In this document: positions 1,971-62,669 of the stretch, one piece after another
Layout: the number at the start of each line of letters is the position of its first letter
How positions within the stretch are numbered: position 1 is the stretch's first letter
Position numbers and translations under genes: made by a program
The notes under the pieces: generated by a model
Database searches by the model: none
Told to the model about the DNA's origin: nothing
What the model saw: only the letters and a program-made list of their open reading frames with translations
DNA from: Oscillospiraceae bacterium
GTDB taxonomy: Bacteria > Bacillota > Clostridia > Oscillospirales > Acutalibacteraceae
Length of the DNA stretch: 64,000 bases
Assembly: GCA_031551875.1 (NCBI GenBank)
Contig: JAVBNA010000020.1
Span: 2,167-66,166 of the forward strand
Direction: 5' to 3'

Positions 1971-3728
1971 TCACTTTTTGCGCTCGCGCAGATTTTTGAG
2001 ATATGCCTGTATGTCGTCAGGGTCGGCGTCTGCCGTCACCGCCTGTTTTTCTTTTTCCTGTCTGATTACGCGTATATAATCCGCCGCAACCGCGCTGTCA
2101 TTCGCATTCTCCGCCGCCTTGGCGAGCATCATCGCGATCCGGCTGACCTCGCCCTCGGAAAACTCTTCGGACAGCTCCATGAGGGAAAAGCCTCTGCCCT
2201 CCTCCGCCCGCCTCAGGATGGCCTCATAGACACGCTGGTTAAAGCCTGTCACCATATCCTGCGCGTTGAGCCTGCTCTGTGGATGTTTTACTTTGTCCGG
2301 ATTATGCATCAGATATGCAAGCAAAGCCTCTTCCGCCCGCGCCGCACGCAGGTTGAGCGCCCGTTCGGGGTTGATCTCGTCCCGCTGGCCGCCCATCTCG
2401 CGAGAAAGAGCAGTAACCTCCTTTTTCTGACGGGTGCGCTCCTCCCGTTTCAGCTTTCCCTTGAGCTGGGTGAGGATGGCGCCCTTGTCCACCGAAAGCT
2501 CCTGCGCAAGCCGGGAGGCGTAGATGTCCCGCTCGATCGGGCTGTCCAGCGTCGCGAGGAAGTCCACTGCTTCACTAAGAAAGGCGACGCGGTCTGCGTC
2601 GGTTTCCCCGCCGTTATGCTTTTCCCGCAGCCGGGACAGTGTGAACTCCACCTCGTTTGGCGCACCCTCCAGCAGGTTTTTAAAGCGGATCGCGCCCTTG
2701 TCTTTTATGTAGTCGTCGGGGTCCTTCCCGTCGGGGATGCGCAGCACCTGCACCGTAAGCCCCGCCCGCCGGAGAATGGGAAGCGCCTTCTGCGTCGCGA
2801 GTGCGCCTGCCTGGTCGGCGTCATAGCACAGCACCACCTTTTTTGTATAGCGTGAAAGCAGGTGCGCCTGCTCGACGGTGAGCGCTGTGCCCAGTGAGGC
2901 GACCGCCGTGCGGAAGCCAGCCTGATGCAGGGATATGACGTCCATATAGCCCTCCGCCAGAATGAGCTCCTCACTCTTTTCATTCTTGGCAAGGTTAAGA
3001 GCAAAAATGTTGTGACTCTTTTTATAGACCAGCGTGTCGGCCGTGTTGACATATTTTCTGGCCGCCTTGGCCTCAAGCACCCGCCCGCCGAAGGCAATCA
3101 CATTGCCCCGCAGATCGATAATCGGGAACATTACACGGCCGCGGAAGATGTCAATGTGCCCGCCCGTTCGGCTTTGAGCCGCCAGATTGGCCGCCACAAG
3201 CTCACCCGGCTTAAAGCCCTTCTCTCCCAAGTGCTTGAGCAGCGCGTCCCACCGGTCGGGCGCATAGCCCAGCCCGAAACGCCGGATGGTCGCGTCCGAC
3301 AGGGCGCGTCCGTGGAGGTATTCGAGCGCCTGAGCGTCCGTTTTCGAATAAAGCTGTGCGTGGAAGAAGCGCGCCGCTTCGACATTGGCCTCCAGAATGC
3401 GCCGCCGGGTCCCCGACAGCCCGTCGTCATAGCTGCCCTCGGGCACGGTCATGCCCGCCCGCTGGGCCAGAAAGCGCACTGCCTCCATATAGTCAAGATT
3501 CTCAATTTTTTTGATAAAGGTCACTGTGTCCCCGCCCGAATTACAGCCAAAGCAAAAAAAGGAATCGTTATCGGGGTACACGGTAAATGAGGGGGTCTTT
3601 TCACTGTGGAAAGGACACAGCCCCACACGGTTGCGCCCCGCCCGCTTGAGATTGACATAGGACGAGACCACCTCCTCGATGGGGCTTCTTATTTTCAGTT
3701 CCTGCAAAAAGCTGTCCGGCAGGGCCAT
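1971..3728 (-). CDS. dnaG: DNA primase
   Basis: 585 aa. CHC2 zinc finger CPFHSEKTPSFTV...FCFGCNSGGD and TOPRIM segment LAEGYMDVISL. Confidence 0.95.
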   Translation of the reverse strand: MALPDSFLQELKIRSPIEEVVSSYVNLKRAGRNRVGLCPFHSEKTPSFTVYPDNDSFFCFGCNSGGDTVTFIKKIENLDYMEAVRFLAQRAGMTVPEGSYDDGLSGTRRRILEANVEAARFFHAQLYSKTDAQALEYLHGRALSDATIRRFGLGYAPDRWDALLKHLGEKGFKPGELVAANLAAQSRTGGHIDIFRGRVMFPIIDLRGNVIAFGGRVLEAKAARKYVNTADTLVYKKSHNIFALNLAKNEKSEELILAEGYMDVISLHQAGFRTAVASLGTALTVEQAHLLSRYTKKVVLCYDADQAGALATQKALPILRRAGLTVQVLRIPDGKDPDDYIKDKGAIRFKNLLEGAPNEVEFTLSRLREKHNGGETDADRVAFLSEAVDFLATLDSPIERDIYASRLAQELSVDKGAILTQLKGKLKREERTRQKKEVTALSREMGGQRDEINPERALNLRAARAEEALLAYLMHNPDKVKHPQSRLNAQDMVTGFNQRVYEAILRRAEEGRGFSLMELSEEFSEGEVSRIAMMLAKAAENANDSAVAADYIRVIRQEKEKQAVTADADPDDIQAYLKNLRERKK

Positions 3729-4818: not shown

Positions 4819-5457
4819 CTATTTCCCGCAAATCTCTTGAAATCGGTAAAAACGCTCCCCGTGGGGCACCGCCTGCACCGCACCGCTTGTCGCGTCGGCC
4901 AGTGTTTTTTGCAGCGCCTCTACACCCTCCCCCGGCAGGTGAAAGGCGATTTCCACCTCGTCGGTGTACGCCGTGTCATCGATTACGCCGTCCGCCGCAG
5001 GGATGAGGGACGCGATTCGCCCGTACTGGTTGTAGTCGCAGCGCAGCACCATCTCCTTGCATTTGAGCATACGTATGATTCCGCCCGCGTCCAGCGCGAT
5101 TTTCGCACCATGGGAATAGGCGCGCACCAGTCCACCCGCGCCCAGCAGCACCCCGCCGAAATAGCGTGTCACCACAACCGCCAGATCGGTCACACCCGAC
5201 TTGAGCAGCACCTCCAGCACCGGCACGCCCGCCGTGCCCGACGGCTCTCCGTCGTCCGAATAACGGCGCTGCTGCCCTTCCCTGAGCACATACGCATAGA
5301 CATTGTGGGCGGCGTCCCAGTGCTTGGATTTGATTTCGCTGATAAACGCGACCGCCTCTTCTTCGCAGGTCACCGGCCTGCAATAGCCGATGAAACGGGA
5401 ACGGCGCTCGACAAATTCATCGCTGGCGGCCTTAACTATGGTCAGATATTCATTCAT
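4819..5457 (-). CDS. yigZ: YigZ/IMPACT-family protein
   Basis: Motifs RSRFIGY, HNVYAYV and SDDGEPSGTAGVP. Start set at the ATG at 5457 (MNEYLTIV...), which has an upstream AGAGGAA. Confidence 0.8.
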   Translation of the reverse strand: MNEYLTIVKAASDEFVERRSRFIGYCRPVTCEEEAVAFISEIKSKHWDAAHNVYAYVLREGQQRRYSDDGEPSGTAGVPVLEVLLKSGVTDLAVVVTRYFGGVLLGAGGLVRAYSHGAKIALDAGGIIRMLKCKEMVLRCDYNQYGRIASLIPAADGVIDDTAYTDEVEIAFHLPGEGVEALQKTLADATSGAVQAVPHGERFYRFQEICGK

Positions 5458-6139: not shown

Positions 6140-6167
6140 AGTATAGCACAACCCAGCAAAATTTCAA
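6140..6167 (-). promoter_or_regulatory. Sigma-A-type promoter for hpf (TTGAAA-16-TGcTATACT)
   Basis: Read on the minus strand: -35 TTGAAA (6167-6162) and an extended -10 TGCTATACT ending at 6140. A leader hairpin AAGAGCG...CGCTCTT follows. Confidence 0.5.
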
Positions 6168-6176
6168 GGGCAAGCA

Positions 6177-7019
6177 CTAAATTTGCGCGCTTTTGTGACG
6201 ATTGACATGACAGCCGACATTAACCGCCACCGGAAGCCCCGCGATATGGGTCGGATATACTTCAATTTTGACCGAAAGCGCCGTTGTCAGCCCGCCGAAG
6301 CCCTGCGGCCCGATGTTCAGCCCATTGACTGCGGCGAGCGCCTCCCGTTCCATCAGTGCGTAGTATTCATCTTGGTTCGGCACGCGCATGGAGCGGCACA
6401 GCGCTTTTTTCGCAAGCAGGGCGCACAGCTCAAAGTCACCGCCGATGCCCACGCCGAGCACCATGGGCGGACAGGGGTTGCTCCCCGCCTCGCGCGCCAC
6501 CGACACAATAAAATCCAGCACATCCTGTTTTTCCGCCGCCGGGGTAAACATGCGGATGCGGCTCATGTTCTCGCTGCCGAAGCCCTTGGGCGCCACCGTG
6601 ATGGTCAGCCCGTCGCCCTCTGTAAGCTCGGTGTGAATCACGGCGGGCGTGTTGTCGCCGGTGTTCCCTCTGCGCAGCGGGTCGGCCACAACCGAACAGC
6701 GCAGCTTGCCCTCGGTGTACCCCCTAGCGACGCCCGCGTGAATAGCCGCGTTCAGTGAGCCGCCGGCGAGGTGCACCTCCTGGCCGAGCCGCACGAAAAC
6801 CACAGCCATCCCCGTGTCCTGACAGACCGGGATATCCAGCTCCCGCGCCGCGTCAATATTTTTCAGAAGGTCACCCAGGACGGCTTTGCCCAGCGGGCTT
6901 TGCTCCCTCTTTTCAAAGTCTGCCAATGTCTCCCCCACTTCATCGGGCAGGATTTTATTGGCTTCTATGCACAACCGCGCCACCGTCTCGGTGACGAGCG
7001 CTACCGGGATTTCGCGCAA
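6177..7019 (-). CDS. Fe-S hydro-lyase, tartrate/fumarate subfamily, alpha subunit (class I fumarate hydratase alpha-like)
   Basis: 280 aa. N-terminus MREIPV...LCIEAN and motif IPVCQDTGMAVVF. TTG start immediately after the TAA of the upstream gene (TAATTG). Confidence 0.8.
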   Translation of the reverse strand: MREIPVALVTETVARLCIEANKILPDEVGETLADFEKREQSPLGKAVLGDLLKNIDAARELDIPVCQDTGMAVVFVRLGQEVHLAGGSLNAAIHAGVARGYTEGKLRCSVVADPLRRGNTGDNTPAVIHTELTEGDGLTITVAPKGFGSENMSRIRMFTPAAEKQDVLDFIVSVAREAGSNPCPPMVLGVGIGGDFELCALLAKKALCRSMRVPNQDEYYALMEREALAAVNGLNIGPQGFGGLTTALSVKIEVYPTHIAGLPVAVNVGCHVNRHKSAQI

Positions 7020-8177
7020 TTAAATCACCTTGTTTCCTCGAATGAATACCGACTTCGGCTTGCAGCAAAGGTCAAGCGGATCGCCGTCAAACAGCGAAAA
7101 ATCGGCGTCTTTACCCACCGAAAGCGAGCCCACCCTGTCCTGAAGCCCGCATATGCACGCCGCATCAATTGTGATCGCACGCAGCGCCTGCTCCCGTCCC
7201 ATCCCCTCCCGCATCGCCAGCGCGGCGGTCAGCGGCAGATACTGCACCGGGATGACCGGATGGTCGGAAATGAGCGCAACCGATGCGCCCGCACCCGCAA
7301 GAATGCCTGCCGAGGCCGGCGTCAGGTTGCGCATCTCGGGCTTGGAACGGTCACACAGCAGCGGCCCCACGAGCAGAGGCACGCCTTCCTCTGCGAGCCG
7401 GCCGGCAATCAGATGTCCCTCGGTCGCGTGTACGACCGCAAACCGCAGGCCAAACTCCCCCGCAATGCGCACCGCCGTATCGATGTCGTCGGCGCGATGG
7501 GCGTGAAAGTGGGCGGGGATCTCTCCGCGCAAAACCGGCAGCAGCGCCTCGCACTTCATGTCATATTCGGGCGGCTCCAGCTCATCGTCCTCTGCCGCAT
7601 GGCTCAAATCCTCTTCATAGCGGCGTGCCTTGTAGAGCTGCTCGCGGATGATCGCCGCCGTGGCCATGCGCGTGCTGGGCGACTGGCTCTTGCCGTGATA
7701 GGTGGTCTTTGGGTTTTCGCCCAGCGCAAACTTCATGGCGCAGGGCGCCTTCACCACCCGGCCGTCCAGCGTGCCGTCCCCCGTTTTCATGGCAAGCAGC
7801 TGCCCTCCAATGGGGTTTGCGCTGCCTGGGCCGGTGATTACGGTGGTCACGCCCGCAGCCACCGCTTCCTCAAAGCAGCGGTCGTAGGGATTGACGCCGT
7901 CAAGTGCGCGCAGATGGGGCGTGGCAGGGTCGGTGTCCTCGTTGCCGTCGTCCCCTTCAAACCCGAGCCCGTCCTCCCACATGCCCAGATGGGTGTGGGC
8001 GTCCACAAAGCCGGGGTAAACCGCCGCGCCTTCGGCGTCCACCGCCTCCTCGCCCGCCTTCGGGATAAGCTCGCTCATGGGGCCGAGCGCCGCAATCAAA
8101 CCGTTTTCCACACGCAGATAGCCGTCCGAAATGGGCTCTCCCTCCATCGGGTACAGCGCAGCATTGATCAGAACCAT
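7020..8177 (-). CDS. Amidohydrolase-family metallohydrolase
   Basis: 385 aa. Metal-binding motif PGFVDAHTHLG and a C-terminal GSLSVGKDADF motif typical of the amidohydrolase superfamily. Confidence 0.8.
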   Translation of the reverse strand: MVLINAALYPMEGEPISDGYLRVENGLIAALGPMSELIPKAGEEAVDAEGAAVYPGFVDAHTHLGMWEDGLGFEGDDGNEDTDPATPHLRALDGVNPYDRCFEEAVAAGVTTVITGPGSANPIGGQLLAMKTGDGTLDGRVVKAPCAMKFALGENPKTTYHGKSQSPSTRMATAAIIREQLYKARRYEEDLSHAAEDDELEPPEYDMKCEALLPVLRGEIPAHFHAHRADDIDTAVRIAGEFGLRFAVVHATEGHLIAGRLAEEGVPLLVGPLLCDRSKPEMRNLTPASAGILAGAGASVALISDHPVIPVQYLPLTAALAMREGMGREQALRAITIDAACICGLQDRVGSLSVGKDADFSLFDGDPLDLCCKPKSVFIRGNKVI

Positions 8178-10177: not shown

Positions 10178-10447
10178 TTAGGACTGTTCCAGCTCCTGCT
10201 TTTGGATGTCCATAAATTCATACATCTCTGCGGCGTCACCCTTGGTGGCGTGCTCCGTAACGCGCAGCACCCTCGCCTTGACCGTCCGTGCGCCCAGCGT
10301 CACCTCGATCACGTCGCCGCATTTGACGTCATAGGATGCGCGGGCGGGCTTGCCGTTTACGAGAATCCGCCCGGCGTCGCACGCCTCATTGGCCACGGTG
10401 CGGCGCTTGATCAGCCGGGAAACCTTCAGATATTTGTCCAGTCTCAT
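10178..10447 (-). CDS. rqcP: S4-domain RNA-binding protein (YabO/RqcP, Hsp15-like)
   Basis: 89 aa. MRLDKYLKVSRLIKRRTVA...GRILVNG S4 fold. Synteny yabO-yabP-yabQ-divIC. Confidence 0.8.
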   Translation of the reverse strand: MRLDKYLKVSRLIKRRTVANEACDAGRILVNGKPARASYDVKCGDVIEVTLGARTVKARVLRVTEHATKGDAAEMYEFMDIQKQELEQS

Positions 10448-10459
10448 GCTTTTCTCCTT

Positions 10460-10615
10460 TAGTCGAACCTCTTGGAATTCAAGTTGTCTTTTTGGTCTGT
10501 TTTCCGCCTTGCTTCATTGTCCTCCTTGCCTTGCGTCAGCAAGGTTGCGTCGTCCGCCTCGAAAAACAAAAAACATTCTCAAAAATCCTGCCTCGTCTTT
10601 CAAGTAGTTCGACTA
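10460..10615 (-). repeat. Conserved intergenic element, copy A (possible structured leader RNA or MITE-like repeat)
   Basis: Roughly three quarters identical by eye over ~110 nt to 31960-32095, in opposite genomic orientation. Central hairpin CCTTGC-TGAC-GCAAGG. Terminal inverted repeat TAGTCGAAC/GTTCGACTA abuts the SD of rqcP. Confidence 0.6.
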
Positions 10616-10622
10616 TACAACG

Positions 10623-10657
10623 AAACCGACCTTATGCAAAAACAATAAGGTCGGTTT
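10623..10657 (-). terminator. Terminator of hup
   Basis: Arms AAACCGACCTTAT/ATAAGGTCGGTTT with a 9-nt loop, about 30 nt after the hup stop. T-rich after the stem on the minus strand. Confidence 0.65.
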
Positions 10658-10686: not shown

Positions 10687-10965
10687 TTATTTCTTTTCGA
10701 CAGCAGTCTTGAACGCCTTGCCAACTTTAAAGGCCGGCACGGTCGAAGCCGGAATCACGAGCGGGGAGTTAGTTCTGGGGTCGCGTCCGGTTCTTTCGCT
10801 TCTGTGACGAAGCTCAAAGGTACCAAAGCCAACCAGCTGAACCTTCTCGTCCTTGGCGACGGTCTCGACGATAGCGTCGATCACGGCGTTGACGGCCTTC
10901 TCGGCGTCCTTCTTGGAAAACTCGGTTTTCTCGGATACGGCTGCGATCAGTTCTGACTTATTCAT
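10687..10965 (-). CDS. hup: HU-family DNA-binding protein
   Basis: 92 aa. MNKSELI...GFGTFE.R.R..R.GRNP.T-type signature (GFGTFELRHRSERTGRDPRT). Confidence 0.95.
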   Translation of the reverse strand: MNKSELIAAVSEKTEFSKKDAEKAVNAVIDAIVETVAKDEKVQLVGFGTFELRHRSERTGRDPRTNSPLVIPASTVPAFKVGKAFKTAVEKK

Positions 10966-10990
10966 TTTCTTACCTCCAAATTTTCTTTAT

Positions 10991-11812
10991 TCAAAGGGAG
11001 TTTTCATTCTCCTTGGAATGCATTTGTGCTTTGACCTCGTCCCACAGCGTGTCCAGCTCTTCGAGCGCCGCACTGGTCATGTCCAGTCCGCGCTCCTGCG
11101 CCAGCTGCTCCACACGGGCAAAACGCTCGGTGAACTTGTCCGTCGCGCGGGTGAGCGCCTCCTCGGACTGTACGTCCACAAAACGTGACACATTGACAGC
11201 GGCAAACAGCACATCGCCCAGCTCTTCCTCGATCTCACGGGGATTCCCGTCCTCGACCGCCTCCAGAAGCTCCTCCGCCTCCTCGCTGAGCTTCGACAGA
11301 GCGCCGTACACGTCGTTCCAGTCGAATCCCACTTTAGCGGCCTTATGCTGCACCTTCTGGGCGCGCATGAGCGCCGGAAAGCCACGAGGCACGCTGCGCA
11401 TGGCGTCGGCCGTGGTGTGCTGGTTCTTTTCCTCGCGTTTGATGCTGTCCCAGTTGTGCAGAACCTGCTCGCTGGTCTCGGCCACCACGTCGCCAAAAAT
11501 GTGCGGGTGACGGTGAATGAGCTTTTTGCAGATGCCGTCGGATACGTCGTCAAAAGTAAATGTACCGCGTTCCGCTTCCATCTGTGCGTGAAAGACCACC
11601 TGAAGCAGCACGTCACCCAGCTCCTCCCGGAGCCCGTCGGTGTCGTCCGCGTCAATTGCGTCGATTACTTCATAGGTTTCCTCGATAAAATTGGAGCGGA
11701 TGGACGAATGGGTTTGTTCCTTGTCCCAGGGACATCCCTCGGGCGAACGCAACAGTTTCATGATTTTTAACAAATCTTCCGCCGTATACCGTTCTTTTTT
11801 TTCAAAAAGCAA
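10991..11812 (-). CDS. mazG: MazG nucleoside triphosphate pyrophosphohydrolase (YabN-like, tandem MazG domains)
   Basis: 273 aa. CPWDKEQTH, EE.YE..DAI and EELGD.L motifs, each occurring twice. Confidence 0.9.
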   Translation of the reverse strand: MLFEKKERYTAEDLLKIMKLLRSPEGCPWDKEQTHSSIRSNFIEETYEVIDAIDADDTDGLREELGDVLLQVVFHAQMEAERGTFTFDDVSDGICKKLIHRHPHIFGDVVAETSEQVLHNWDSIKREEKNQHTTADAMRSVPRGFPALMRAQKVQHKAAKVGFDWNDVYGALSKLSEEAEELLEAVEDGNPREIEEELGDVLFAAVNVSRFVDVQSEEALTRATDKFTERFARVEQLAQERGLDMTSAALEELDTLWDEVKAQMHSKENENSL

Positions 11813-29744: not shown

Positions 29745-30761
29745 TTATACAAACAGTACAGGCAGAAGATATGGCGCAATTACATTGCTAATCAGAAAAT
29801 AGCATAGGGCAATGCTCAGCACGACGGCAAAGTTAACGCCGCCCTGCTTTTTCAGTAAGAGCGGGATGTCCGCCGGGCTTTCTGCGGTGCGCGTGATGTC
29901 ACGCACCTTCCCGACACAGTGGTTGTAGTACAGCTTGTTGCTGACGCAGGCGCAGACAATGCCGATGCCAACAGCAAGCAGGAAAAGCGCCGCGGGAACC
30001 AGGAGCAGCAGATTCTCCTGCTGGCTCAGCTTGCTCCCCTCACTGTACAGGCGCATGATCGCTCCGCTGTCCGGCGGCTCGGTCAGGGAAATGCCGGCGC
30101 GCTCATAGATGCCGTTGAGCAGCGGCACCACATATGTAGCCTGGATGTAGAGCGTAGCCACGTGCAGCAACGCCATCGCCCCCGTGATCAGCGCGCCCAG
30201 CTTGTACATCTTCCGATAGATCATCCACACGCCCGAAAAAAACAGTGCGGCGAAATTGAAGCCGCCCCAGGTTTTTTGTTTTTCCATTTGCCCGAAGCGC
30301 CTCATATAATAGGCGGTGTTCTGTCCGACGAACTGCGCCACGTCCCCCGCCGACACTTCCCCGAACCGCTCGTCCGGCTGCACGCCGCCCATCGGGTCGG
30401 CCAGCCCTCCGTAACCGGGCGTCAGCGGCACGCTTGTCTCCCCCATCGGTACATGAGGCTGCCGGGGGGCGCTGCGCAGGCTGTCCCCGCCGCAAAACGC
30501 GCAGTGTTCTGCGCCCGCCTCGTTGGCTGCGCCGCATCGGTCGCAAACATATTCCATGTTGCCGTTGTCCGGACGCGTCCGTCGCTCGGGGCGCTTCCAT
30601 CCCTCTTCGGTGCCGTGCAGCGCCTCATAGTGGCAGTGACCCAGCTTGTTCCAGCAGTCCCTGTGATGGGGCGCACCGCAGGCCGGACAGGACACGACAT
30701 CGTCTCCGTCGGAAAAGGGAACGCCGCACGACGGGCACGACAGGCCTTCATATAAAAACAT
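29745..30761 (-). CDS. Membrane protein: RING-like binuclear zinc finger, zinc ribbon and DUF2628-like TM domain
   Basis: CPSCG..(12)..CPACGAPHHRDCW...HC, then CDRCGAANEAGAEHCAFCGG, then a YYMRRF...FNFAALFFSGVWMIYRKMY TM region. Confidence 0.65.
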   Translation of the reverse strand: MFLYEGLSCPSCGVPFSDGDDVVSCPACGAPHHRDCWNKLGHCHYEALHGTEEGWKRPERRTRPDNGNMEYVCDRCGAANEAGAEHCAFCGGDSLRSAPRQPHVPMGETSVPLTPGYGGLADPMGGVQPDERFGEVSAGDVAQFVGQNTAYYMRRFGQMEKQKTWGGFNFAALFFSGVWMIYRKMYKLGALITGAMALLHVATLYIQATYVVPLLNGIYERAGISLTEPPDSGAIMRLYSEGSKLSQQENLLLLVPAALFLLAVGIGIVCACVSNKLYYNHCVGKVRDITRTAESPADIPLLLKKQGGVNFAVVLSIALCYFLISNVIAPYLLPVLFV

Positions 30762-30775
30762 ATCTTTCCCCCGTT

Positions 30776-31693
30776 TTAAAATACCAGAATTTGTATGAGC
30801 AGAGCCACTGCGGCATTGAGCGCGACAAAGCAGGCAAACGAGACATAAGCGCTGCGCGCTTTGACGCCGCCCTTTTCACGGAGCATTACCAGCAGGTCGT
30901 CTGGGTTTGTCTCCTTGATTTTTGTGATCTGCCGGACACACCGTTTATAGTACAGTCGGTTGGCAAGAAAGCCCATGAGAAACATAATCCCGCCCAGCAG
31001 AAAAATCTGGAGAGCGCTCAAAAATAAATCCTCCACATAGCTTGCCGAGCCCGCGATATACAGCGCGGAAAAATAGCCCCGCACAAAGGAGGAGGCGATC
31101 ATCACGACAAAAAACACCGCACCGGGCAGAACCATTCCCCTGAAAAAGCACCAGAAGGCGCTTAAAAATGCGCCGGCATAGTTGAACACGCTCCGGCCGC
31201 CCTCTTCAATCTCCCTGAACCGGGGCAGGTAATAGCCGCTGCCCCGCCCGACATAGGCGGCCAGCTCCTCTACCGAATGGCCGCCGATGCGCTCCTTGGG
31301 GTCCATACCCGCACAGGGGTCAAGCGCAGCCTGAAGAAGGGAGTCGCCCTGTCCGGGAAAGGTAAAGGTTGCGGCAAAGGGCGGAATATCCGGACGGGTG
31401 GCGGGGGCACTTGGAAGCAGGTTCTCCCCGCATCGTTTGCAGAAAAACAGTGTGGTCTCATTTTCCTGCCCGCACACCGGACAGACAAGAACGTCGTCCC
31501 CGGGTTCTTCGTCCTCTTCACCGGCATACGCCTGCCAGGCTTTTCCCTCACTGTGCCGTTCGGCGAAAACGCACGCCCCCTGCTGCTCATAGCAGCACCG
31601 GTGGTGGGGCGCGCCGCAAGCCGGACACACCACAACGTCGTCGTCCTCAAGGAAGACCTTTTCGCACACCTGGCACTTTTGTCCAATCGGCAT
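30776..31693 (-). CDS. Paralog of 29745-30761 (RING-like zinc finger, zinc ribbon and DUF2628-like TM domain)
   Basis: CQVCE..(12)..CPACGAPHHRCCY...C, then CPVCGQENETTLFFCKRCGENL, then a YYLPRF...FNYAGAFLSAFWCFFRGM TM region. Confidence 0.65.
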   Translation of the reverse strand: MPIGQKCQVCEKVFLEDDDVVVCPACGAPHHRCCYEQQGACVFAERHSEGKAWQAYAGEEDEEPGDDVLVCPVCGQENETTLFFCKRCGENLLPSAPATRPDIPPFAATFTFPGQGDSLLQAALDPCAGMDPKERIGGHSVEELAAYVGRGSGYYLPRFREIEEGGRSVFNYAGAFLSAFWCFFRGMVLPGAVFFVVMIASSFVRGYFSALYIAGSASYVEDLFLSALQIFLLGGIMFLMGFLANRLYYKRCVRQITKIKETNPDDLLVMLREKGGVKARSAYVSFACFVALNAAVALLIQILVF

Positions 31694-31911
31694 ATCCGTT
31701 TACTTCCTCTCTTCGTTCCGGTCACACGTCGGGGAGCGCTCCGACACTTTCACCTCTCTCTATTTTATCATTTTTTCCCAATAGTTCAATTACCTGCCCT
31801 TCTTGTTTACAATTCGTTTATATTTGAGCGGTTATATCCTGTGCTGTCAGCCGTTGATTTGGGGCGTATTATAGGACATAAATTTTTCTGTTTTGAAAAA
31901 CACAGCCCGGA

Positions 31912-31940
31912 TTGATATTCTAAAAATAATCGTGTATAAT
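31912..31940 (+). promoter_or_regulatory. Sigma-A-type promoter TTGATA-17-TATAAT
   Basis: -35 at 31912-31917 and -10 at 31935-31940. Drives the leader that contains element copy B and the GT2 gene. Confidence 0.6.
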
Positions 31941-31959
31941 GTAAAAGATAATTTGTTAT

Positions 31960-32095
31960 TGTCGAACCAATTCAAAGACGAGACCGGATTTTTTGAGATT
32001 ATTTTTGTCATGCGAGGCGGACGGCGCAACCTTACTGCCGTAAGGCAGAAAGACAACGAGGCCGGGCGGAAAACAGGCCGAAAGGCGACTTTAAT
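31960..32095 (+). repeat. Conserved intergenic element, copy B (possible structured leader RNA or MITE-like repeat)
   Basis: Aligns to the reverse complement of 10460-10615. Hairpin CCTTAC-TGCC-GTAAGG carries a compensatory G:C to A:T change relative to copy A. About 50 nt upstream of the GT2 start. Confidence 0.6.
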
Positions 32096-32142
32096 TTGAA
32101 GTGGTTTCACAATATTATCATACTTCTGACGTTTGAGAGGGT

Positions 32143-33210
32143 ATGGCGGTGAATGCAGCTGTTTTGATTCCCTGTCTGAATCCACAGCAGACGACAATTG
32201 AATATGTATCCTCCCTGCTCGCGCTCGGATTTCCCTCTGTAGTTGTGGTCGACGACGGAAGTGAGCCCGAATGCAGCGAGGTTTTTGCCGCGCTGAGGGC
32301 GCTGCCTGGGTGCACCGTGCTGCACCATGACAGAAACAGGGGCAAGGGCCGCGCGCTCAAGACCGGCTTTACCCATTTCCAGACCGCCTGTAAGGGACTG
32401 TCCGGCGTTGTCACGGCATACGCCGACGGGCGCTACCGGCCGGAGGATGTGCTCACGGTGGCGCGTGCGCTTGAGCGCCTGTCCCCCGCCCTCATCCTCG
32501 GCGAACGGGACACAAAGGATAAAACACTGTCGGCGCTGACCCGCGCGGGAAACCAGGTGACCAGTGTCCTGCTCCGCGTGCTCTACGGCATATCGATCCA
32601 GGACTTCCAGACCGGCCTGAGGGGATACCCCGCTGAGCTGCTGGACAGGCTTCTCACCGTGTGGGGCGAGCGGTATGAATATGAGATCAACCTCCTGCTC
32701 GCATGCATCAAGCACGCCGTCCCCATCGAGCAGGTACCGGTAGGCTCAGCCTATTACAAAAACCTCGGATCGGTGTCCCACCGGATCAGCTCGACCTTTA
32801 TGACGCTGCTTCTGGTCGTCCAGTCCTTTTTACGCTTTGCCGCCTCCTCGCTGACCTCCTCCGCGCTGGATATCGGTCTGTTTGCCGTGATGACCAAGCT
32901 GGTTCTCACCCCCTCTTTCCCTTTTTATATTGAGCTGAGCACCATTGCTGCGCGCAGCGTGTCGGCCTCGGTCAATTTCTCCCTCAACCGGAAATTTGTC
33001 TTTGGCGGCCGGGGTGCGGGAAAGAAGGCGGCCTGCCGGTTTGTATTTCTGACACTCGCTCAAATGCTCGCTTCGGCGCTTCTTGTCAATATTCTGGTCA
33101 ACCTGACCGGCATTGACGAGGTGCTGATTAAGCTGGTGGTGGACGTCACGCTGTTTTTCATTAGTTATCAGGTTCAGCACCGCTGGATATTTGAAAAGAA
33201 AAAGAATTAA
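32143..33210 (+). CDS. Family-2 glycosyltransferase fused to a C-terminal GtrA-like membrane domain
   Basis: VLIPCLNP..., VVVVDDGSE and NRGKGRALKTGF motifs. C-terminal four-TM GtrA signature (SVNFSLNRKFVFGG). Start could be the GTG at 32149. Confidence 0.8.
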   Translation: MAVNAAVLIPCLNPQQTTIEYVSSLLALGFPSVVVVDDGSEPECSEVFAALRALPGCTVLHHDRNRGKGRALKTGFTHFQTACKGLSGVVTAYADGRYRPEDVLTVARALERLSPALILGERDTKDKTLSALTRAGNQVTSVLLRVLYGISIQDFQTGLRGYPAELLDRLLTVWGERYEYEINLLLACIKHAVPIEQVPVGSAYYKNLGSVSHRISSTFMTLLLVVQSFLRFAASSLTSSALDIGLFAVMTKLVLTPSFPFYIELSTIAARSVSASVNFSLNRKFVFGGRGAGKKAACRFVFLTLAQMLASALLVNILVNLTGIDEVLIKLVVDVTLFFISYQVQHRWIFEKKKN

Positions 33211-33362: not shown

Positions 33363-35741
33363 ATGAACAATGATTCCAACAGGCCCTCTCCCCGCCGGTA
33401 TGCCCCTTCAGACCGCACGCCTTCGGGTCGATATGCGTCCTCCTCCCATTCGGGACAATCCCGCGGCCAGTCCCGTCCGCGCCCGCCGCAAAGCCGAACC
33501 GACTCTGGGCGTCCCTATGCGTCAGACCGACGTCCGGGCGAACGCCCAGCGCCGCGGCCTCAGCCCTCCCCGCAGCGTCCCCGTCCCGAATATGACTTTG
33601 ACTATGAGGTCGAACACGCCCATACACAGCGGCCGCACCGCGAATCGACGCCGGTAAACCGCCGCGGACCCACGGGGATGGGAAATCAATCAAGCAGAGG
33701 ATATGCCCCATATGGCAGTGGCGGACGAGGCCCATCGCGTGCTTCCGCTTACCACTTTTCCATTGATCTGCGCATGGCCCTGCGGCTGTTCCTCTTCTTT
33801 TTGGCGTCTTTTTTCTGGCAGGAATCGATTTTCCGGATTTTTATCTACCAGAGCTTTTTTGACAGCGCCCTGATTTTCTCCACTTTCTTTTCTGTCGCGA
33901 CGGCGGCGCTGTTTGCCCTGTTTTCCACCTTCGGGAGTGCGCGAACCAACCGCCTTGTAGCGGTGATTCTGAGCTTTATTATATCCATGCTCTTTTGTAC
34001 GCAATACGTCTACTACGGCTTTTTCAAGGTGCCCCTCTCGCTTTACTCGATGGGGCAGGCCGACCAGGTCGCCCAGTTCGCCGGGGACATTATTTCGTAT
34101 ATATTTTCCAACCTAATCCAATTGATCCTTCTGCTGCTGCCCACCGTGCTGCTCTTTTTCGTCGGGCCGCGGCTGGAACTTTTTGAAAAAACCATTGTAA
34201 AGGAAAAGCTTCTGCTGGGCGCCGCAGCGCTGGGTTCTTTTCTGTTCACCACGCTGATCCTGGCTATTTTGGGTTCAAACAACCTTGCCCACTCGGTCTA
34301 CTTCAATATCAACGACGCCGACACCGCACAGCGCACGCTGGGCGTGGTCACGAACATGCGGCTTGACCTGACGCGATCGGTCTTTGGCTTTGAGGAGTAC
34401 ATCCCCGAAGAGGACTGGGGCGATGATGAGCCGCCCTCCCCGTCGGACACCGCCTCGGGCGGCAACACCTCAGACAACACCTCCTCCCTGCCCGAAACCA
34501 CCTATGAACCCAATATCATGTCCATTGATTTTGACCAGCTGATCTCCGACACCAAAAGCGACACGGTCAAAAAGATGCACGAGTATTTCAAGGACGTGGA
34601 ACCCACGCTGAAGAATGAATACACCGGCATGTTTAAGGACTGCAACCTGATCTTTATGACCTGCGAGGCGTTCTCGCGGCTCGCGGTCAGCGAGAAATAC
34701 ACACCCACCCTATATAAGCTGGTCAATGAAGGGCTGACCTTCAACAATTTCTATAATCCCGTTTGGAGCGTGTCCACCTCCGACGGTGAATACGTCGCCT
34801 GCACAGGCCTGATTCCCAAAAGCGGCGTATGGAGCTTCCACCTGTCCGGCAGCAATTCCATGCCCTTCTGTCTGGGCAATCAGTTCGGGAAGCTTCCCGG
34901 CTACGAGAAGCCGCGCGCGTGGCACAACCACACCTGGACCTACTACAAGCGAAACATCTCTCACCCCAACATGGGCTATGACTACAAGGGCGTCGGCCAT
35001 GGGCTGGACGTCAAAAAATCCTGGCCTGAGTCCGACCTCGAGATGATGGAAAAGACGCTGCCTGAGTATATTAATGCTGAGAAGTTCCACTCGTACTATA
35101 TGACGGTCAGCGGGCACATGCTGTACAGCTTCTCGGGCAACGCGATGGCTTCCAAAAACAAGGAGGCGGTTGCCGATTTGGGGCTTTCGGAGCAGGCACA
35201 GGCATACATTGCCTGTAACATTGAGCTGGACAAGGCAATGAAATATTTGATCGACCAGCTGGAGGCCGCCGGTAAGCTGGACAACACGGTCATCGTGTTC
35301 GGCGGTGACCACTACCCCTACGGCCTCGACAAAAGCGCGATCGACGAACTGGCCGGTCACACGGTTGAGCCCAACTTCGAGCTGTACAAGAGCTCCCTTG
35401 TGATCTGGAAAAACGGTATGCCCAAAACCGAAATCGACAAGCCCATTTCCAGCCTTGATATCCTGCCCACCATCTCCAACCTCTTTGGCCTGGAATACGA
35501 TTCCCGTCTGATGATGGGGCGTGACATTTTCTCCACCACGCCGGGGCTGGTTATGTTCAAGGATCGGAGCTGGCTGACCGACAAAGCGACCTACAACGCC
35601 AAGACCAAGGAAACCCAAAGCCTGAACGGCGAGCCGGTGGATGAGGATTATGTCAAATCCATCAACCGAGAGGTTTCCAACCGCTTCAAATATTCCACAC
35701 AAATTTTGGAAAATGACTATTACGCCAAGGTTTTCAAGTAG
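33363..35741 (+). CDS. LTA-synthase/sulfatase-family phosphoglycerol or alditol-phosphate transferase
   Basis: 792 aa. A ~120-aa Arg/Pro/Ser-rich N-terminus, a multi-TM block, and an extracytoplasmic sulfatase domain (NLIFMTCEAFS, WSVSTSDGEY, GGDHYPYG). Confidence 0.75.
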   Translation: MNNDSNRPSPRRYAPSDRTPSGRYASSSHSGQSRGQSRPRPPQSRTDSGRPYASDRRPGERPAPRPQPSPQRPRPEYDFDYEVEHAHTQRPHRESTPVNRRGPTGMGNQSSRGYAPYGSGGRGPSRASAYHFSIDLRMALRLFLFFLASFFWQESIFRIFIYQSFFDSALIFSTFFSVATAALFALFSTFGSARTNRLVAVILSFIISMLFCTQYVYYGFFKVPLSLYSMGQADQVAQFAGDIISYIFSNLIQLILLLLPTVLLFFVGPRLELFEKTIVKEKLLLGAAALGSFLFTTLILAILGSNNLAHSVYFNINDADTAQRTLGVVTNMRLDLTRSVFGFEEYIPEEDWGDDEPPSPSDTASGGNTSDNTSSLPETTYEPNIMSIDFDQLISDTKSDTVKKMHEYFKDVEPTLKNEYTGMFKDCNLIFMTCEAFSRLAVSEKYTPTLYKLVNEGLTFNNFYNPVWSVSTSDGEYVACTGLIPKSGVWSFHLSGSNSMPFCLGNQFGKLPGYEKPRAWHNHTWTYYKRNISHPNMGYDYKGVGHGLDVKKSWPESDLEMMEKTLPEYINAEKFHSYYMTVSGHMLYSFSGNAMASKNKEAVADLGLSEQAQAYIACNIELDKAMKYLIDQLEAAGKLDNTVIVFGGDHYPYGLDKSAIDELAGHTVEPNFELYKSSLVIWKNGMPKTEIDKPISSLDILPTISNLFGLEYDSRLMMGRDIFSTTPGLVMFKDRSWLTDKATYNAKTKETQSLNGEPVDEDYVKSINREVSNRFKYSTQILENDYYAKVFK

Positions 35742-41654: not shown

Positions 41655-44510
41655 TTATCGGATGACCGTCCCTGCCGAGGGCGGAATTATATTCTCCCCA
41701 CTGACCCGCTCCAAATATGCCTTTTTGTAAACCGGAAGCAAAGAAAAATCGCTGTCGCGCATATCAAAGCCACGGAAATCGGCGCTTTCCAGGTCAAAGC
41801 TGGGCGGGTAAATCAGCCCCTTGATGTCGGACGCGCCCGCAACGTGCTCAAAGCGCATGTTTTTGACCAGACTGAAATCGCTGTATGAAATGTCACGGCC
41901 GCGGAAGTCCGTGCGCTGCATGTTGAAGGTGTTGGGATAGACAATGCCGTTGATTTTCTGCGCGAGACGGATGTGCCCGAAGGTCAGCCCCGACACCTTG
42001 CTGAAATCGCTGTATGCGATGTTGCGTCCCGAATAGTCGGCGTTTTCAATGTCGAAAGACGCGGGATAAGCCAGGCCGTAAATCCGATAGGTGTTCATGA
42101 CGTGCTGCCAGCGAAAGCTGCTGACCCGCGTGAAGTCGGAGAATGAAATATCGCGGTCAAAGAACTCCGCCCGCTCAATATTGAAATCGGAGGGATATTC
42201 AATGCCCCGAATCGACGCCGCCGTGCGCAGGTGCTTCCAGCGCAGATCCTCGACACGGGTGAAGTCGGAAAAGGAAATGTCCCGTCCCGAGAAATCGGCC
42301 CGTTCAATGTCAAAGTCGGCGGGGTATACGATGCCCTTGATTTTTTCCGCCGGCTGGAGGTGCTTCCAACGCAGGAAGCGCAACTGGCTGAAATCACTCT
42401 GAGAGATATCCCGGCCGGTAAAATCAGCGCGGTCAATGTTAAACTCGCGGGGGTAAATAATCCCTTTGAGGGAATTCGAGCGCTTGATCTGCCGCCATTT
42501 GAGGAAAGGAACCAAGCTGAAATCGGAGAAGGAGATATCCTTGCCCATAAAGTCGGCGTTTTCCATATCAAATTCCGCCGGGTACTTGACCCCGACGATG
42601 TTTTCGGCAAAGCGGATGTGTTCCCAGCGCAGGTATTTGTCCTTGCTAAAATCCATATAGGCGAGGTAACGCCCGTCATACCGCTCATGCTCGCGAATCT
42701 TGCGCAGCGTTTCACTGTCCGCGATCGTACGCATGGCCGGCGCAGTCTGTACCGCTCCTGAGGTGTCGCCCGTCTGGGGCAGCATCGGCGGCATCATGCC
42801 CGGCGACATGTGATACATCATCATGCCGCCGTTCGGACTCATCACCACATACATGGGCACCGGCACCCCCGTCGGCATCATGCCCGCCTGCAGGCCGAGC
42901 GGCTGTATGCCCTGCATTCCGGGGAAACCCTGCATCTGCACAAAGCTCTGCATTTGCGGCGGTACCATCACTGGCTGTCCGCCCGGGAAAGCGCCGTTCA
43001 TCAGCTGCTGCTGATAAGCCGCCCACATCTGGGCGAGCTTGGTTCCCATATCCTCAGCCGCACTCCCCGCTCCTCCGTCGGCAAACGGCGACTGTTCGGG
43101 CTGGCTGCGCGTGGTTTTTTTAGGACGCTGGGGTTCGGGTTGGGGCTGTTTGGGCGCGGCTTTTTCGGTCACCGCGCGCTCGGACTCCTTCCGATTCAGG
43201 ATGGTCACCTGATAGGACGTGTCGGGCTGCACCGCTTCACTGCCGTGACTGCGCACAGTGTTGGAGACACGATCTGACGGGTTAATCCTGAGCGGCTCAG
43301 GGTTTTCCTTGGTTCCCGTGCGCATGCCAGCAGCTCCTGACGATTGTCCGGCGGTGGCGCGCGACGGCGGTTTGCGGGTTCGGGCAGCGGAAGAACCGTT
43401 TAGCGGGATATTCTTCCAGGTCAGCTCAGCTTCTTTGTGCTCCGCGGGCTGTCTGTCCTCCTCCCCCTTGTCCGACTGTGCAAACTCAGCCCGGTAAGGG
43501 TTGGATCTTTTCTTTTCCTCTTTGGGCTTTTCCTTGTCAAAGGCCGCGCGCAGCTGTTCTTTGTATCGATTGATCCGGTCGGCGTAGCTGCCGCCGCTCG
43601 GCTCTTCATAGGGCTGTTCAAATTCGGCTTCCGGTTCAGGCTCGTACTCGTCCTGCTCCTCCGGCTCTGACACGGCCTCTTCCTCCGTCACCGGCAGCTC
43701 CTCGTCCAAGTCGGACAATGCGGCCTCTTCGGCAGACACTTCCCTGGAAATATACTCCTCTTCCTGGGAAGGAACCTCCTCCGCCGGCGCGAAGAGAATC
43801 TCGAGCGGAGCGGGCTCCGCAGCGGGATGCGCCTGCACAATGATCTGCGGGTCGGTCGGCAGCGTGACTGGCGGCACGGCCGGAGATAGGGGCAGAACGG
43901 GAGGCACCTCCGTATATTCAGGCGCCCAGCCGGGCGCTGTTCGTTCGGGGATAATCACCTCGTATGGCGGGCTGGTTTGCGTCTGAGCCTGTCCGTTTGG
44001 ATAGGGCGACGCATAGCTCGGCCGGTAGACGGGCGGAGCGGGACGCACCGGCGCGGAATAGGCGGGGGGCGTCGGATAGGGCGACGCCGCTGGCGCGCCG
44101 TTGTTGTAATAGGGCGGCCGTATCACCGGTTCAGGCGTCAAATACGGAGTGACCGGCCGCTGGGGCGCAGAACGTACATTTCCGTTATAGTAGGGCAAAT
44201 CAGGCTGGGGCTGAAATCCATCGCGGTAGGGCAGGTTTGCCTTTTGCGGGCTCTGCGGTCGGATCGCAGGCGGCTGTGCAGGACGGACATAGGCGGGCTG
44301 GCTCTCCCGCGCAAACACACCTTTGTTGACCGTAAACCCGGTAAGCTGCTTGCTGACCGCGTTGCCGCACTCCGCGCACACAATTGCGGTCGGCGAATTG
44401 GGCGCGCCGCAGTTGGCACACCGAACCGAATGATCCTGTTTAGCCTTCACAGGATCACCGCTTTGCAGTGAATCCAAAAAATTGTCAAAATCAGGCATTT
44501 GGCCTTTCAT
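41655..44510 (-). CDS. Large zinc-ribbon / proline-rich disordered / 43-aa-repeat (pentapeptide-like) protein
   Basis: 951 aa. N-terminal CANCGAPNSPTAIVCAECG, about 540 aa of Pro/Gln/Met-rich low complexity, and a C-terminal 7 x 43-aa repeat block. No TM segment seen. Confidence 0.7.
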   Translation of the reverse strand: MKGQMPDFDNFLDSLQSGDPVKAKQDHSVRCANCGAPNSPTAIVCAECGNAVSKQLTGFTVNKGVFARESQPAYVRPAQPPAIRPQSPQKANLPYRDGFQPQPDLPYYNGNVRSAPQRPVTPYLTPEPVIRPPYYNNGAPAASPYPTPPAYSAPVRPAPPVYRPSYASPYPNGQAQTQTSPPYEVIIPERTAPGWAPEYTEVPPVLPLSPAVPPVTLPTDPQIIVQAHPAAEPAPLEILFAPAEEVPSQEEEYISREVSAEEAALSDLDEELPVTEEEAVSEPEEQDEYEPEPEAEFEQPYEEPSGGSYADRINRYKEQLRAAFDKEKPKEEKKRSNPYRAEFAQSDKGEEDRQPAEHKEAELTWKNIPLNGSSAARTRKPPSRATAGQSSGAAGMRTGTKENPEPLRINPSDRVSNTVRSHGSEAVQPDTSYQVTILNRKESERAVTEKAAPKQPQPEPQRPKKTTRSQPEQSPFADGGAGSAAEDMGTKLAQMWAAYQQQLMNGAFPGGQPVMVPPQMQSFVQMQGFPGMQGIQPLGLQAGMMPTGVPVPMYVVMSPNGGMMMYHMSPGMMPPMLPQTGDTSGAVQTAPAMRTIADSETLRKIREHERYDGRYLAYMDFSKDKYLRWEHIRFAENIVGVKYPAEFDMENADFMGKDISFSDFSLVPFLKWRQIKRSNSLKGIIYPREFNIDRADFTGRDISQSDFSQLRFLRWKHLQPAEKIKGIVYPADFDIERADFSGRDISFSDFTRVEDLRWKHLRTAASIRGIEYPSDFNIERAEFFDRDISFSDFTRVSSFRWQHVMNTYRIYGLAYPASFDIENADYSGRNIAYSDFSKVSGLTFGHIRLAQKINGIVYPNTFNMQRTDFRGRDISYSDFSLVKNMRFEHVAGASDIKGLIYPPSFDLESADFRGFDMRDSDFSLLPVYKKAYLERVSGENIIPPSAGTVIR
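41745..42647 (-). repeat. Seven tandem 129-bp coding repeats (43 aa each)
   Basis: The anchor residue triplet SDF recurs with an exact 43-residue period. Consensus S.V..LRW.H.....I.GI.YP..F.IE.ADF.GRDIS.SDF. Confidence 0.85.
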
Positions 44511-62460: not shown

Positions 62461-62640
62461 CTCCTTTTTGCAATAATCGCTTCATTTCAATTGGATGTTT
62501 TGCTTAAATCATCTTATCATATTGTCATTTTTTGTCAAGATTTTTCTATCGTAAATTGATTGGTTTTTCTGTAAAAGGCAAATGTTTTTACATCATGCAT
62601 GATACAACGACCTCTTTGTGAAAAAAACATCGAAATGAGA

Positions 62641-62669
62641 TTGACTTGGCTGACAGAAAAAACTATAAT
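62641..62669 (+). promoter_or_regulatory. serC-serA promoter TTGACT-17-TATAAT
   Basis: Read directly. About 85 nt upstream of the serC ATG. Confidence 0.6.

Follow-up and report, generated by a model that had tools for sequence, protein, structure and literature searches.

A probable copy of a dispersed palindromic repeat in the 5' leader of the GT2-GtrA gene of an Oscillospiraceae bacterium

The stretch of DNA analysed here, 64 kb from an Oscillospiraceae bacterium and referred to as the window, encodes a fused GT2 and GtrA protein that is followed by an LtaS-like membrane protein. A palindromic element, copy B, stands between the GT2-GtrA promoter and its ribosome-binding site, and a related element, copy A, lies on the other strand between the hup terminator and rqcP. 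The features on which the following discussion is based are these:

31912..31917, + strand: -35 hexamer TTGATA of the GT2-GtrA promoter (consensus scan, conserved orthologous block)
31935..31940, + strand: -10 hexamer TATAAT of the GT2-GtrA promoter (consensus scan, conserved in orthologues)
31957..32114, + strand: element copy B, a 158-nt imperfect palindrome (rod) (blastn, covariance models)
31957..31977, + strand: 5' terminal arm of copy B, TATTGTCGAACCAATTCAAAG, paired with 32089-32114
32013..32070, + strand: apex core of copy B, with the CGAGGCGGA box, the apical hairpin, ACAACGA and the second GGCGGA box
32089..32114, + strand: 3' terminal arm of copy B, CTTTAATTTGAAGTGGTTTCACAATA
32135..32141, + strand: ribosome-binding site GAGAGGG of GT2-GtrA (conserved region in relatives)
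32143..33210, + strand: GT2 and GtrA fusion gene (glycosyltransferase family 2; Pfam PF00535 and PF04138)
33363..35741, + strand: gene for a sulfatase-domain (LtaS-like) membrane protein, 3' of GT2-GtrA (Pfam PF00884)
10623..10657, - strand: hup intrinsic terminator hairpin; copy A starts 5 nt past the stem
10458..10617, - strand: element copy A, between the hup terminator and the rqcP ribosome-binding site (blastn, covariance models)
10178..10447, - strand: rqcP (S4-domain), 3' of copy A (Pfam PF01479)

A sequence-only reading of this region had described a near-consensus promoter, TTGATA-17-TATAAT, at 31912-31940 and had placed it 5' of the element. Both points hold. The promoter matches the consensus at 11 of 12 positions with a 17-nt spacer, and we count it as real because its block, GATTGATATTCT...TGTATAAT, is kept in the leaders of the orthologous GT2-GtrA genes of the two nearest relatives (L002 and L003). 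With the usual spacing of 6-9 nt from the -10 hexamer, transcription would start at about 31946-31949, roughly 8-11 nt 5' of copy B, and from this geometry copy B would be transcribed from the conserved promoter as part of the 5' UTR. The ribosome-binding site GAGAGGG is free and lies outside the fold of the element. While the mechanically called reading frame begins at ATG 32143, the real start of GT2-GtrA is likely to be GTG 32149, which is favoured by the spacing to the ribosome-binding site, by the product of 353 aa recorded at NCBI and by the starts of the relatives' genes, which align with GTGAATG (L002) and ATGAATG (L003). The order of the GT2-GtrA and LtaS-like genes is the same in L003.

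The two copies are clearly related. When 31900-32145 was compared with the 64-kb window by blastn, the sole other match was 10466-10617(-), with 120/153 identical positions (78%, E 1.3e-27), in agreement with the second copy that had been proposed, and no further match was found below E 0.5. Three covariance models were also used: R1, built from copies A and B, then a four-sequence model, and R3, which represents the apex core. R1, R2 and R3 score copy B at 183, 146 and 62 bits, respectively, and find only two copies in the window. The element had been placed at 31960-32095; its existence is borne out but not its extent, because the ends of both copies pair, so that copy B spans 31957-32114 and ends 29 nt before ATG 32143 and 35 nt before GTG 32149, instead of the about 50 nt before the gene given earlier. 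Copy B ends in TATTGTCGAAC...GTTTCACAATA and copy A in TATAGTCGAAC...GTTCGACTA. The outermost pairs TATTG...CAATA of copy B covary with TATAG/CTATA in L109 and L003, and copy A has TATAG/CTAAA. The motif GGCGGA does occur twice in each copy as a direct repeat (32016-32021 and 32065-32070 in copy B, 10558-10553 and 10508-10503 in copy A), although with a spacing of 49-50 nt and not of about 55 nt as had been stated. The CCTTAC/GTAAGG stem that had been singled out is real: it forms the apical hairpin CCTTAC-TGCC-GTAAGG at 32030-32045 (arms 32030-32035 and 32040-32045), and copy A carries the compensatory change CCTTGC/GCAAGG. Also correct was the view that both copies are sense to the gene downstream, copy B to GT2-GtrA and copy A to rqcP, which is followed by yabP and yabQ. 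Since the GC skew is negative throughout the window, copies A and B are opposite with regard to replication, yet each is sense to its own gene. Copy A folds with an MFE of -51 kcal/mol (z about -4.8). Copy B is the worst-folded of 11 copies, with a z of about -1.9 and a branched MFE structure, compared with -8 to -12 in the gut subfamilies, and it looks like an old and decaying copy, the most decayed of those examined. Two other candidates in the window were rejected. An inverted repeat of the right size at 62484-62641 folds no better than shuffled sequence and is not a third copy, and a 29-codon reading frame within copy B is frame-shifted and start-less in the aligned copy A, so that a small-ORF reading was discarded.

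The orthologous leaders tell how the element relates to the genes it precedes. The nearest homologues of GT2-GtrA are 70% and 68% identical (L002 and L003) and the next is 42% identical, the lineage being poorly sampled. In the leaders of L002 and L003 the promoter block and the ribosome-binding region TTGA.GATAAAGAGG are kept and the element is missing; these leaders are about 60 and 130 nt long, compared with 208 nt in the window. Hence, the element sits between two pre-existing signals. At the second site, relatives with RqcP proteins 81-85% identical (L109-L116) have hup-rqcP spacers of 89, 92 and 172 nt, compared with 239 nt in the window, all without the element, and L115 retains the same hup terminator stem without it. 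As the relatives that lack the element are distant (68-85% protein identity), insertion is deduced from the conserved flanking signals rather than from a clean empty site. The two-copy covariance model locates copies elsewhere in the same relatives. In L109 a copy lies between rqcP and yabP (2822-2985), directly after the T-tract of the rqcP terminator, and in L003 a copy lies about 4 kb 3' of GT2-GtrA (10958-11120) and is followed by a terminator. The shared cis-regulatory leader put forward by the sequence-only reading thus fails on an observation that it had named in advance as refuting, namely that the genes are kept and the element is absent from the orthologous leaders; in the nearest sampled relatives promoter and ribosome-binding site are kept too, and both leaders lack the element. 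Its other proposal, domestication of a mobile repeat, fares better in one half: mobility is supported by copies that lie at further sites, run in either direction, have unrelated neighbours or are truncated, while an acquired function, the domestication half, is not.

We show here that copies A and B belong to a superfamily of hairpin repeats of about 160 bases that is widespread in Oscillospirales (gut Clostridia). The four-sequence covariance model matched MAG fragments of Oscillibacter (L032) and Ruminococcus (L020) that had been obtained through chance pattern matches, and R3 revealed a copy in the Oscillospiraceae MAG fragment L060 as well as a second copy, also new, in L123. By blastn, the family is present in at least 11 human-gut contigs deposited as 'Bacteriophage sp.', among them L124, which bears ordinary bacterial genes, and a search with an apical-hairpin pattern found it also in IMG/VR contigs. 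Plasmids gave no blastn match to the element, and in curated phage genomes the blastn matches are confined to 'UNVERIFIED Bacteriophage sp.' gut contigs with bacterial genes. A general phage feature was rejected, since the matches in the phage collection are contigs with bacterial genes; one copy (L120) follows a phage terminase gene. Known copies score 45-99 bits with R3, except the apex-deleted copy L128 with 24 bits. The same model finds three copies in 24 randomly obtained Clostridia fragments (about 170 kb) and none in 596 kb of other loci, with nhmmer in agreement, and covariance-model matches reach E-values of 1e-13 to 1e-23 across many independent sources with empty controls. From the DNA sampled we estimate a density of roughly one copy in every 30-60 kb; the copy number per genome is an estimate only, as both large DNA scans used overly specific patterns. 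The scan of genome contigs with GAGGCGGACG-N35-46-GGCGGAAAAC, a pattern that fits the window subfamily only (GAGGCGGAGG is found in the relatives), gave at least 100 matches, of which those listed are all chance or coding matches and do not include the window's own genome. The scan of metagenome contigs with GGCGGACGNCGCAAC-N20-45-GGCGGAAAA, likewise specific to the window subfamily, gave five matches, all by chance. In Rfam 15 no gathering-threshold match exists in the window, the lowest E-values for the element copies belong to DdR5, Ocean-V and FuFi-1 and are at noise level (E 0.7-8), and an E-value search with both copies and four loci yielded nothing relevant. In the literature covered, a search for Clostridial MITE or stem-loop families already named gave nothing specific.

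Every full-length copy is an imperfect hairpin along its entire length of 155-171 nt. At least seven subfamilies can be told apart by their unrelated terminal arms (TATAGTCGAAC, TATAGCCGTTT, AGAACCTGTCTTCAC, AAGGGAAGCTCTGA, GGGTAACCGATGA, TATACTAATC and GGCAACCTCTAAAAAC), and they have an interior in common that consists of the CGGAUUUU / AAAAGACG module with tandem G-A/A-G, a GAGGC box with the covarying apical hairpin, and a small purine-rich loop under this hairpin that is followed by AACGA. The apex core is the best-conserved part across subfamilies. Its hairpin occurs as CCTTAC/GTAAGG, GGAATGC/GCCTTCC, GGAATAC/GTATTTC and GGCGGGC/GCCGCCC, a clear case of covariation. In a MAFFT alignment of ten copies, 84.7% of the cells are paired compared with 63.3% in shuffles, none of 500 shuffles reaching the observed value, and double-sided changes are seen at 29 of the 38 pairs, where slid controls stay at or below 49%. 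The sense strand folds better than its complement in all 11 copies, by 9-26 kcal/mol. In L124 two subfamilies stand adjacent in opposite orientation, at 5053-5216(+) and 5230-5399(-), with only the GCAGGCGGGCTTG(C/T)CGCCCGGCAAGG apex in common. Two different subfamilies are also found in L123, at 2294-2457 and about 6160-6330.

Several observations bear on the mobility of these repeats. Five copies of the AGAACC... subfamily (L125, L126, L127, L128 and L130) share 96-100% identity although they occupy five loci whose flanks are unrelated, and this subfamily has evidently amplified recently. Two of its copies are without the 5' end and two without the 3' end, and in L128 the apex has been deleted between GGCAAAA direct repeats, the copy lying inside the loop of a bidirectional terminator. 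Several contigs end within the element, as expected because a repeat breaks assemblies. The neighbouring genes are unrelated and include GT2-GtrA, rqcP, yabP, rny, a phage terminase gene, an ABC ATPase/GNAT pair and a solute-binding protein/vWA pair. Relative to genes, copies lie in either orientation, with antisense copies in L020, L124a, L125, L126 and L130, and among full-length copies about 10 of 12 are sense to a neighbouring gene as judged by crude gene calls. Copy A and the copies in L109, L032, L120 and L060 lie 5-45 nt 5' of a ribosome-binding site or start codon. In the Oscillibacter fragment a well-folded copy (7342-7509, -82 kcal/mol) lies in sense orientation 33 nt 5' of rny, the gene for RNase Y. 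A terminator hairpin adjoins 8 of about 14 copies, counted by eye and without statistics, and the repeats may prefer hairpins or terminators for insertion. Three copies start right after the T-tract, one lies in the terminator loop and three have a terminator 5-20 nt further on; such sites are window 10619-10657(-), L109 about 2770-2821, L124 about 5013-5052, L128 2975-3135, L003 11125-11160 and L127 3074-3115. No target-site duplication was found at nine readable junctions (copies A and B, L109, L003, L020, L123, L124a, L128 and the single intact ends of truncated copies). A scan of viral contigs for AGAACCTGTCTTCAYARG returned only further copies, fragments or isolated single ends, and among these was no autonomous element with such ends. 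In L135 a lone match to the end AGAACCTGTCTTCACAAG (1707-1724) stands beside Mu-like transposase genes (A/B-type) and may be a fragment or a chance match, a second end being absent within 7.6 kb. The search for empty sites of the gut subfamily in the phage collection gave self-matches and other copies only. Taken together with the covariation and the sense bias, the missing target duplication and the terminator adjacency suggest selection on, or recognition of, a folded single strand, either RNA or single-stranded DNA. The same is suggested by the stronger fold, which is always on one strand, and by conservation of the interior and not of the ends. Room is thereby left for a role at the RNA level.

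Among known classes of small repeats, MITEs share several features with the superfamily. At 155-171 bp it is small (MITEs being below about 500 bp) and non-coding, its ends form 17-20 bp with each other in all full-length copies in the manner of terminal inverted repeats, with the entire element being palindromic beyond the ends alone, and its copies are dispersed with differences in presence and absence (two in 64 kb, absent in orthologous leaders). However, a target-site duplication is lacking at the readable junctions, and the pattern of conservation is the reverse of that of a classical transposase-bound MITE, because here the interior is conserved and the ends vary among subfamilies. ERIC or IRU elements of Enterobacteria and Yersinia are full-length imperfect palindromes of about 127-170 bp, non-coding, intergenic and usually within transcription units. 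They occur in either orientation and are present or absent at orthologous sites, and as RNA they fold into a hairpin that can make the adjoining mRNA more or less stable. The repeats described here resemble them as non-coding, full-length imperfect palindromes found in both orientations and variably present at orthologous sites, but are not known to be similar to them in sequence, belong to another phylum, comprise many subfamilies with differing arms and a common apex, and show no TA duplication. Correia elements (NEMIS) of Neisseria and the pneumococcal RUP, BOX and SPRITE elements are repeats of 100-160 bp near promoters or ribosome-binding sites with truncated variants, which are co-transcribed and whose hairpins are processed by RNases. 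Small size, dispersal, truncated forms and a position near promoter and ribosome-binding site are shared with them. In Correia and RUP the terminal inverted repeats are conserved and a TA target is duplicated, in association with a transposase family, whereas here the termini vary by subfamily, conservation is seen in the interior and a duplication was not found. RAYT-mobilised REPIN or REP elements and integron attC sites conserve structure over stem sequence, show strand asymmetry and leave no target duplication. These features fit recognition as folded single-stranded DNA, and some such elements target hairpins. REP units are 20-40 bp long with a GTAG or CGTC head and are conserved at their termini, and attC sites flank cassettes near an integrase. 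The present repeats are alike in being structure-defined hairpins with strand asymmetry and without target duplication. They differ in having a conserved apex instead of conserved termini, no REP head (their ends are TATAG, AGAACC, AAGGGAAG, GGGTAACC and TATACTAATC, and they are not units of 20-40 bp) and no cassettes. In the DNA covered, neither a RAYT nor an integrase was seen. The attC boxes RYYYAAC...GTTRRRY are fitted in part by GTCGAAC...GTTCGAC of copy A and misfit in other subfamilies, and neither a cassette array nor an integrase was found in the element flanks. Readings as a single-strand origin, oriT or attC were rejected in view of the chromosomal housekeeping context and the absent defining boxes. 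A riboswitch or leader RNA is disfavoured, since the element is not conserved in orthologous leaders and shows neither a consistent sense orientation nor coherent genes nor an expression platform; for copy B no terminator or anti-terminator was found and the ribosome-binding site is unsequestered. The stem-loop sequence (SLS) families, a catalogue of repeated non-coding sequences of bacterial genomes that fold into stem-loops (PMC2267715), appear to be of the same general class and form, in outline, a generic catalogue.

Copy B is probably one of the copies of a dispersed, non-coding palindromic repeat of about 160 bp, comparable to MITE, ERIC or REPIN elements, and would be transcribed within the 5' UTR of GT2-GtrA. 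It is best understood as a passenger, a non-autonomous repeat, and not as a regulatory RNA specific to the GT2-GtrA operon. The repeat would have inserted between a pre-existing sigma-A-type promoter and the GT2-GtrA ribosome-binding site, and in the transcript it would form a long imperfect hairpin starting about 10 nt from the 5' end. Its spread could be due to an enzyme acting in trans on the folded single strand, for which the conserved apex and internal loops, instead of terminal sequences, would be the recognition features. An effect of copy B on the mRNA, if there is any, would be generic, such as protection of the 5' end from exonucleolytic decay or, alternatively, entry of RNase III or RNase Y or cleavage specific to double strands, with a change in the half-life of the mRNA. 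The sequence gives no sign of a ligand- or regulon-specific switch, and such a switch seems improbable since the element is not followed by a terminator and leaves the ribosome-binding site free. For annotation, a false lead is removed, as the common 'leader' of rqcP and GT2-GtrA would be a repeat and no signal of a regulon. An abundant repeat superfamily is documented in Oscillospirales, major Clostridia of gut and rumen. Such repeats fragment metagenome assemblies, can alter the stability of host mRNAs and may be mistaken for riboswitch candidates because of their covarying helices. With an interior that is conserved, ends that vary, a strand-asymmetric fold and no target duplication seen, these repeats pose a question of mobilisation that could now be tested.

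Other explanations differ considerably in how well they account for these data. A multi-copy functional structured RNA, or a structure-specific element of single-stranded DNA, whose apex is bound by a dedicated protein is clearly the less likely reading but deserves attention. It takes as the apex the GAGGC box, the 3x3 loop GCA/AAG under the apical hairpin, and the tandem G-A/A-G beside a U4/A4 run, and has the rod act in the transcript, for example as mRNA stabiliser, processing signal or protein sponge, so that an effect of copy B on GT2-GtrA expression would be real though not operon-specific. An interior that is conserved across genera while the arms covary and the strand-asymmetric fold in 11 of 11 copies are in line with it. 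So are the sense bias of full-length copies, many of which lie 5-45 nt before a ribosome-binding site or start codon, and the two window copies, opposite to each other in replication and both sense to their genes. Moreover, copies in relatives are found in the same neighbourhoods (rqcP-yabP and GT2-LtaS), in different spacers. However, copies are truncated or internally deleted, antisense (the five listed above), placed within a terminator loop, absent from orthologous sites or near-identical at many loci, no partner protein has been identified, and the orientation count depends on crude gene calls. A cis-regulatory leader that the rqcP/sporulation and envelope-glycosylation operons would have in common, dedicated to them as a riboswitch or as a protein-bound attenuator, is very unlikely. 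The sense orientation of both window copies in 5' leaders, the covarying helices and the conserved promoter just 5' of copy B would all be expected of it, but not the absence from both orthologous leaders, nor members in 3' regions, in a terminator loop, in antisense or beside unrelated genes, nor the lack of a terminator or anti-terminator, of a sequestered ribosome-binding site and of an Rfam match. Chance similarity or low-complexity sequence could appeal only to A/T- and purine-rich tracts and can practically be dismissed, given the E-value of 1e-27 between copies A and B and the covariance-model matches (E 1e-13 to 1e-23) in independent sources with none in controls.

One might speculate, with considerable doubt, that the superfamily represents a new class of structure-defined hairpin elements of Firmicutes. 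Its conserved apex module, made up of the GAGGC box, the GCA/AAG 3x3 loop and a tandem G-A/A-G by a U/A run, would be read on the single strand by a dedicated enzyme or RNA-binding protein. The long arms would be free to covary, insertion would be without duplication and occur preferentially against terminator hairpins, and copies would survive chiefly in sense orientation since the rod modulates the fate of the mRNA. If true, such elements would be a Gram-positive counterpart of the REPIN/RAYT or attC logic with a phenotype at the RNA level.

Some features of the surrounding DNA are recorded for completeness. Divergent from the GT2-GtrA promoter region, at 29745-31693(-), the window has two tandem paralogous genes with Prok-RING_1 and DUF2628 (zinc-ribbon) domains, in place of which L002 and L003 carry a dockerin-domain gene. 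At 41865-42374 of the window a repeat of about 123-129 nt occurs three times, with 62-72% identity among its copies, which probably represent repeated protein modules within a gene. In L003 a NiCo riboswitch (RF02683, 69 bits) that is unrelated to the repeat is located 5' of a cation-efflux gene at 3132-3226(-).
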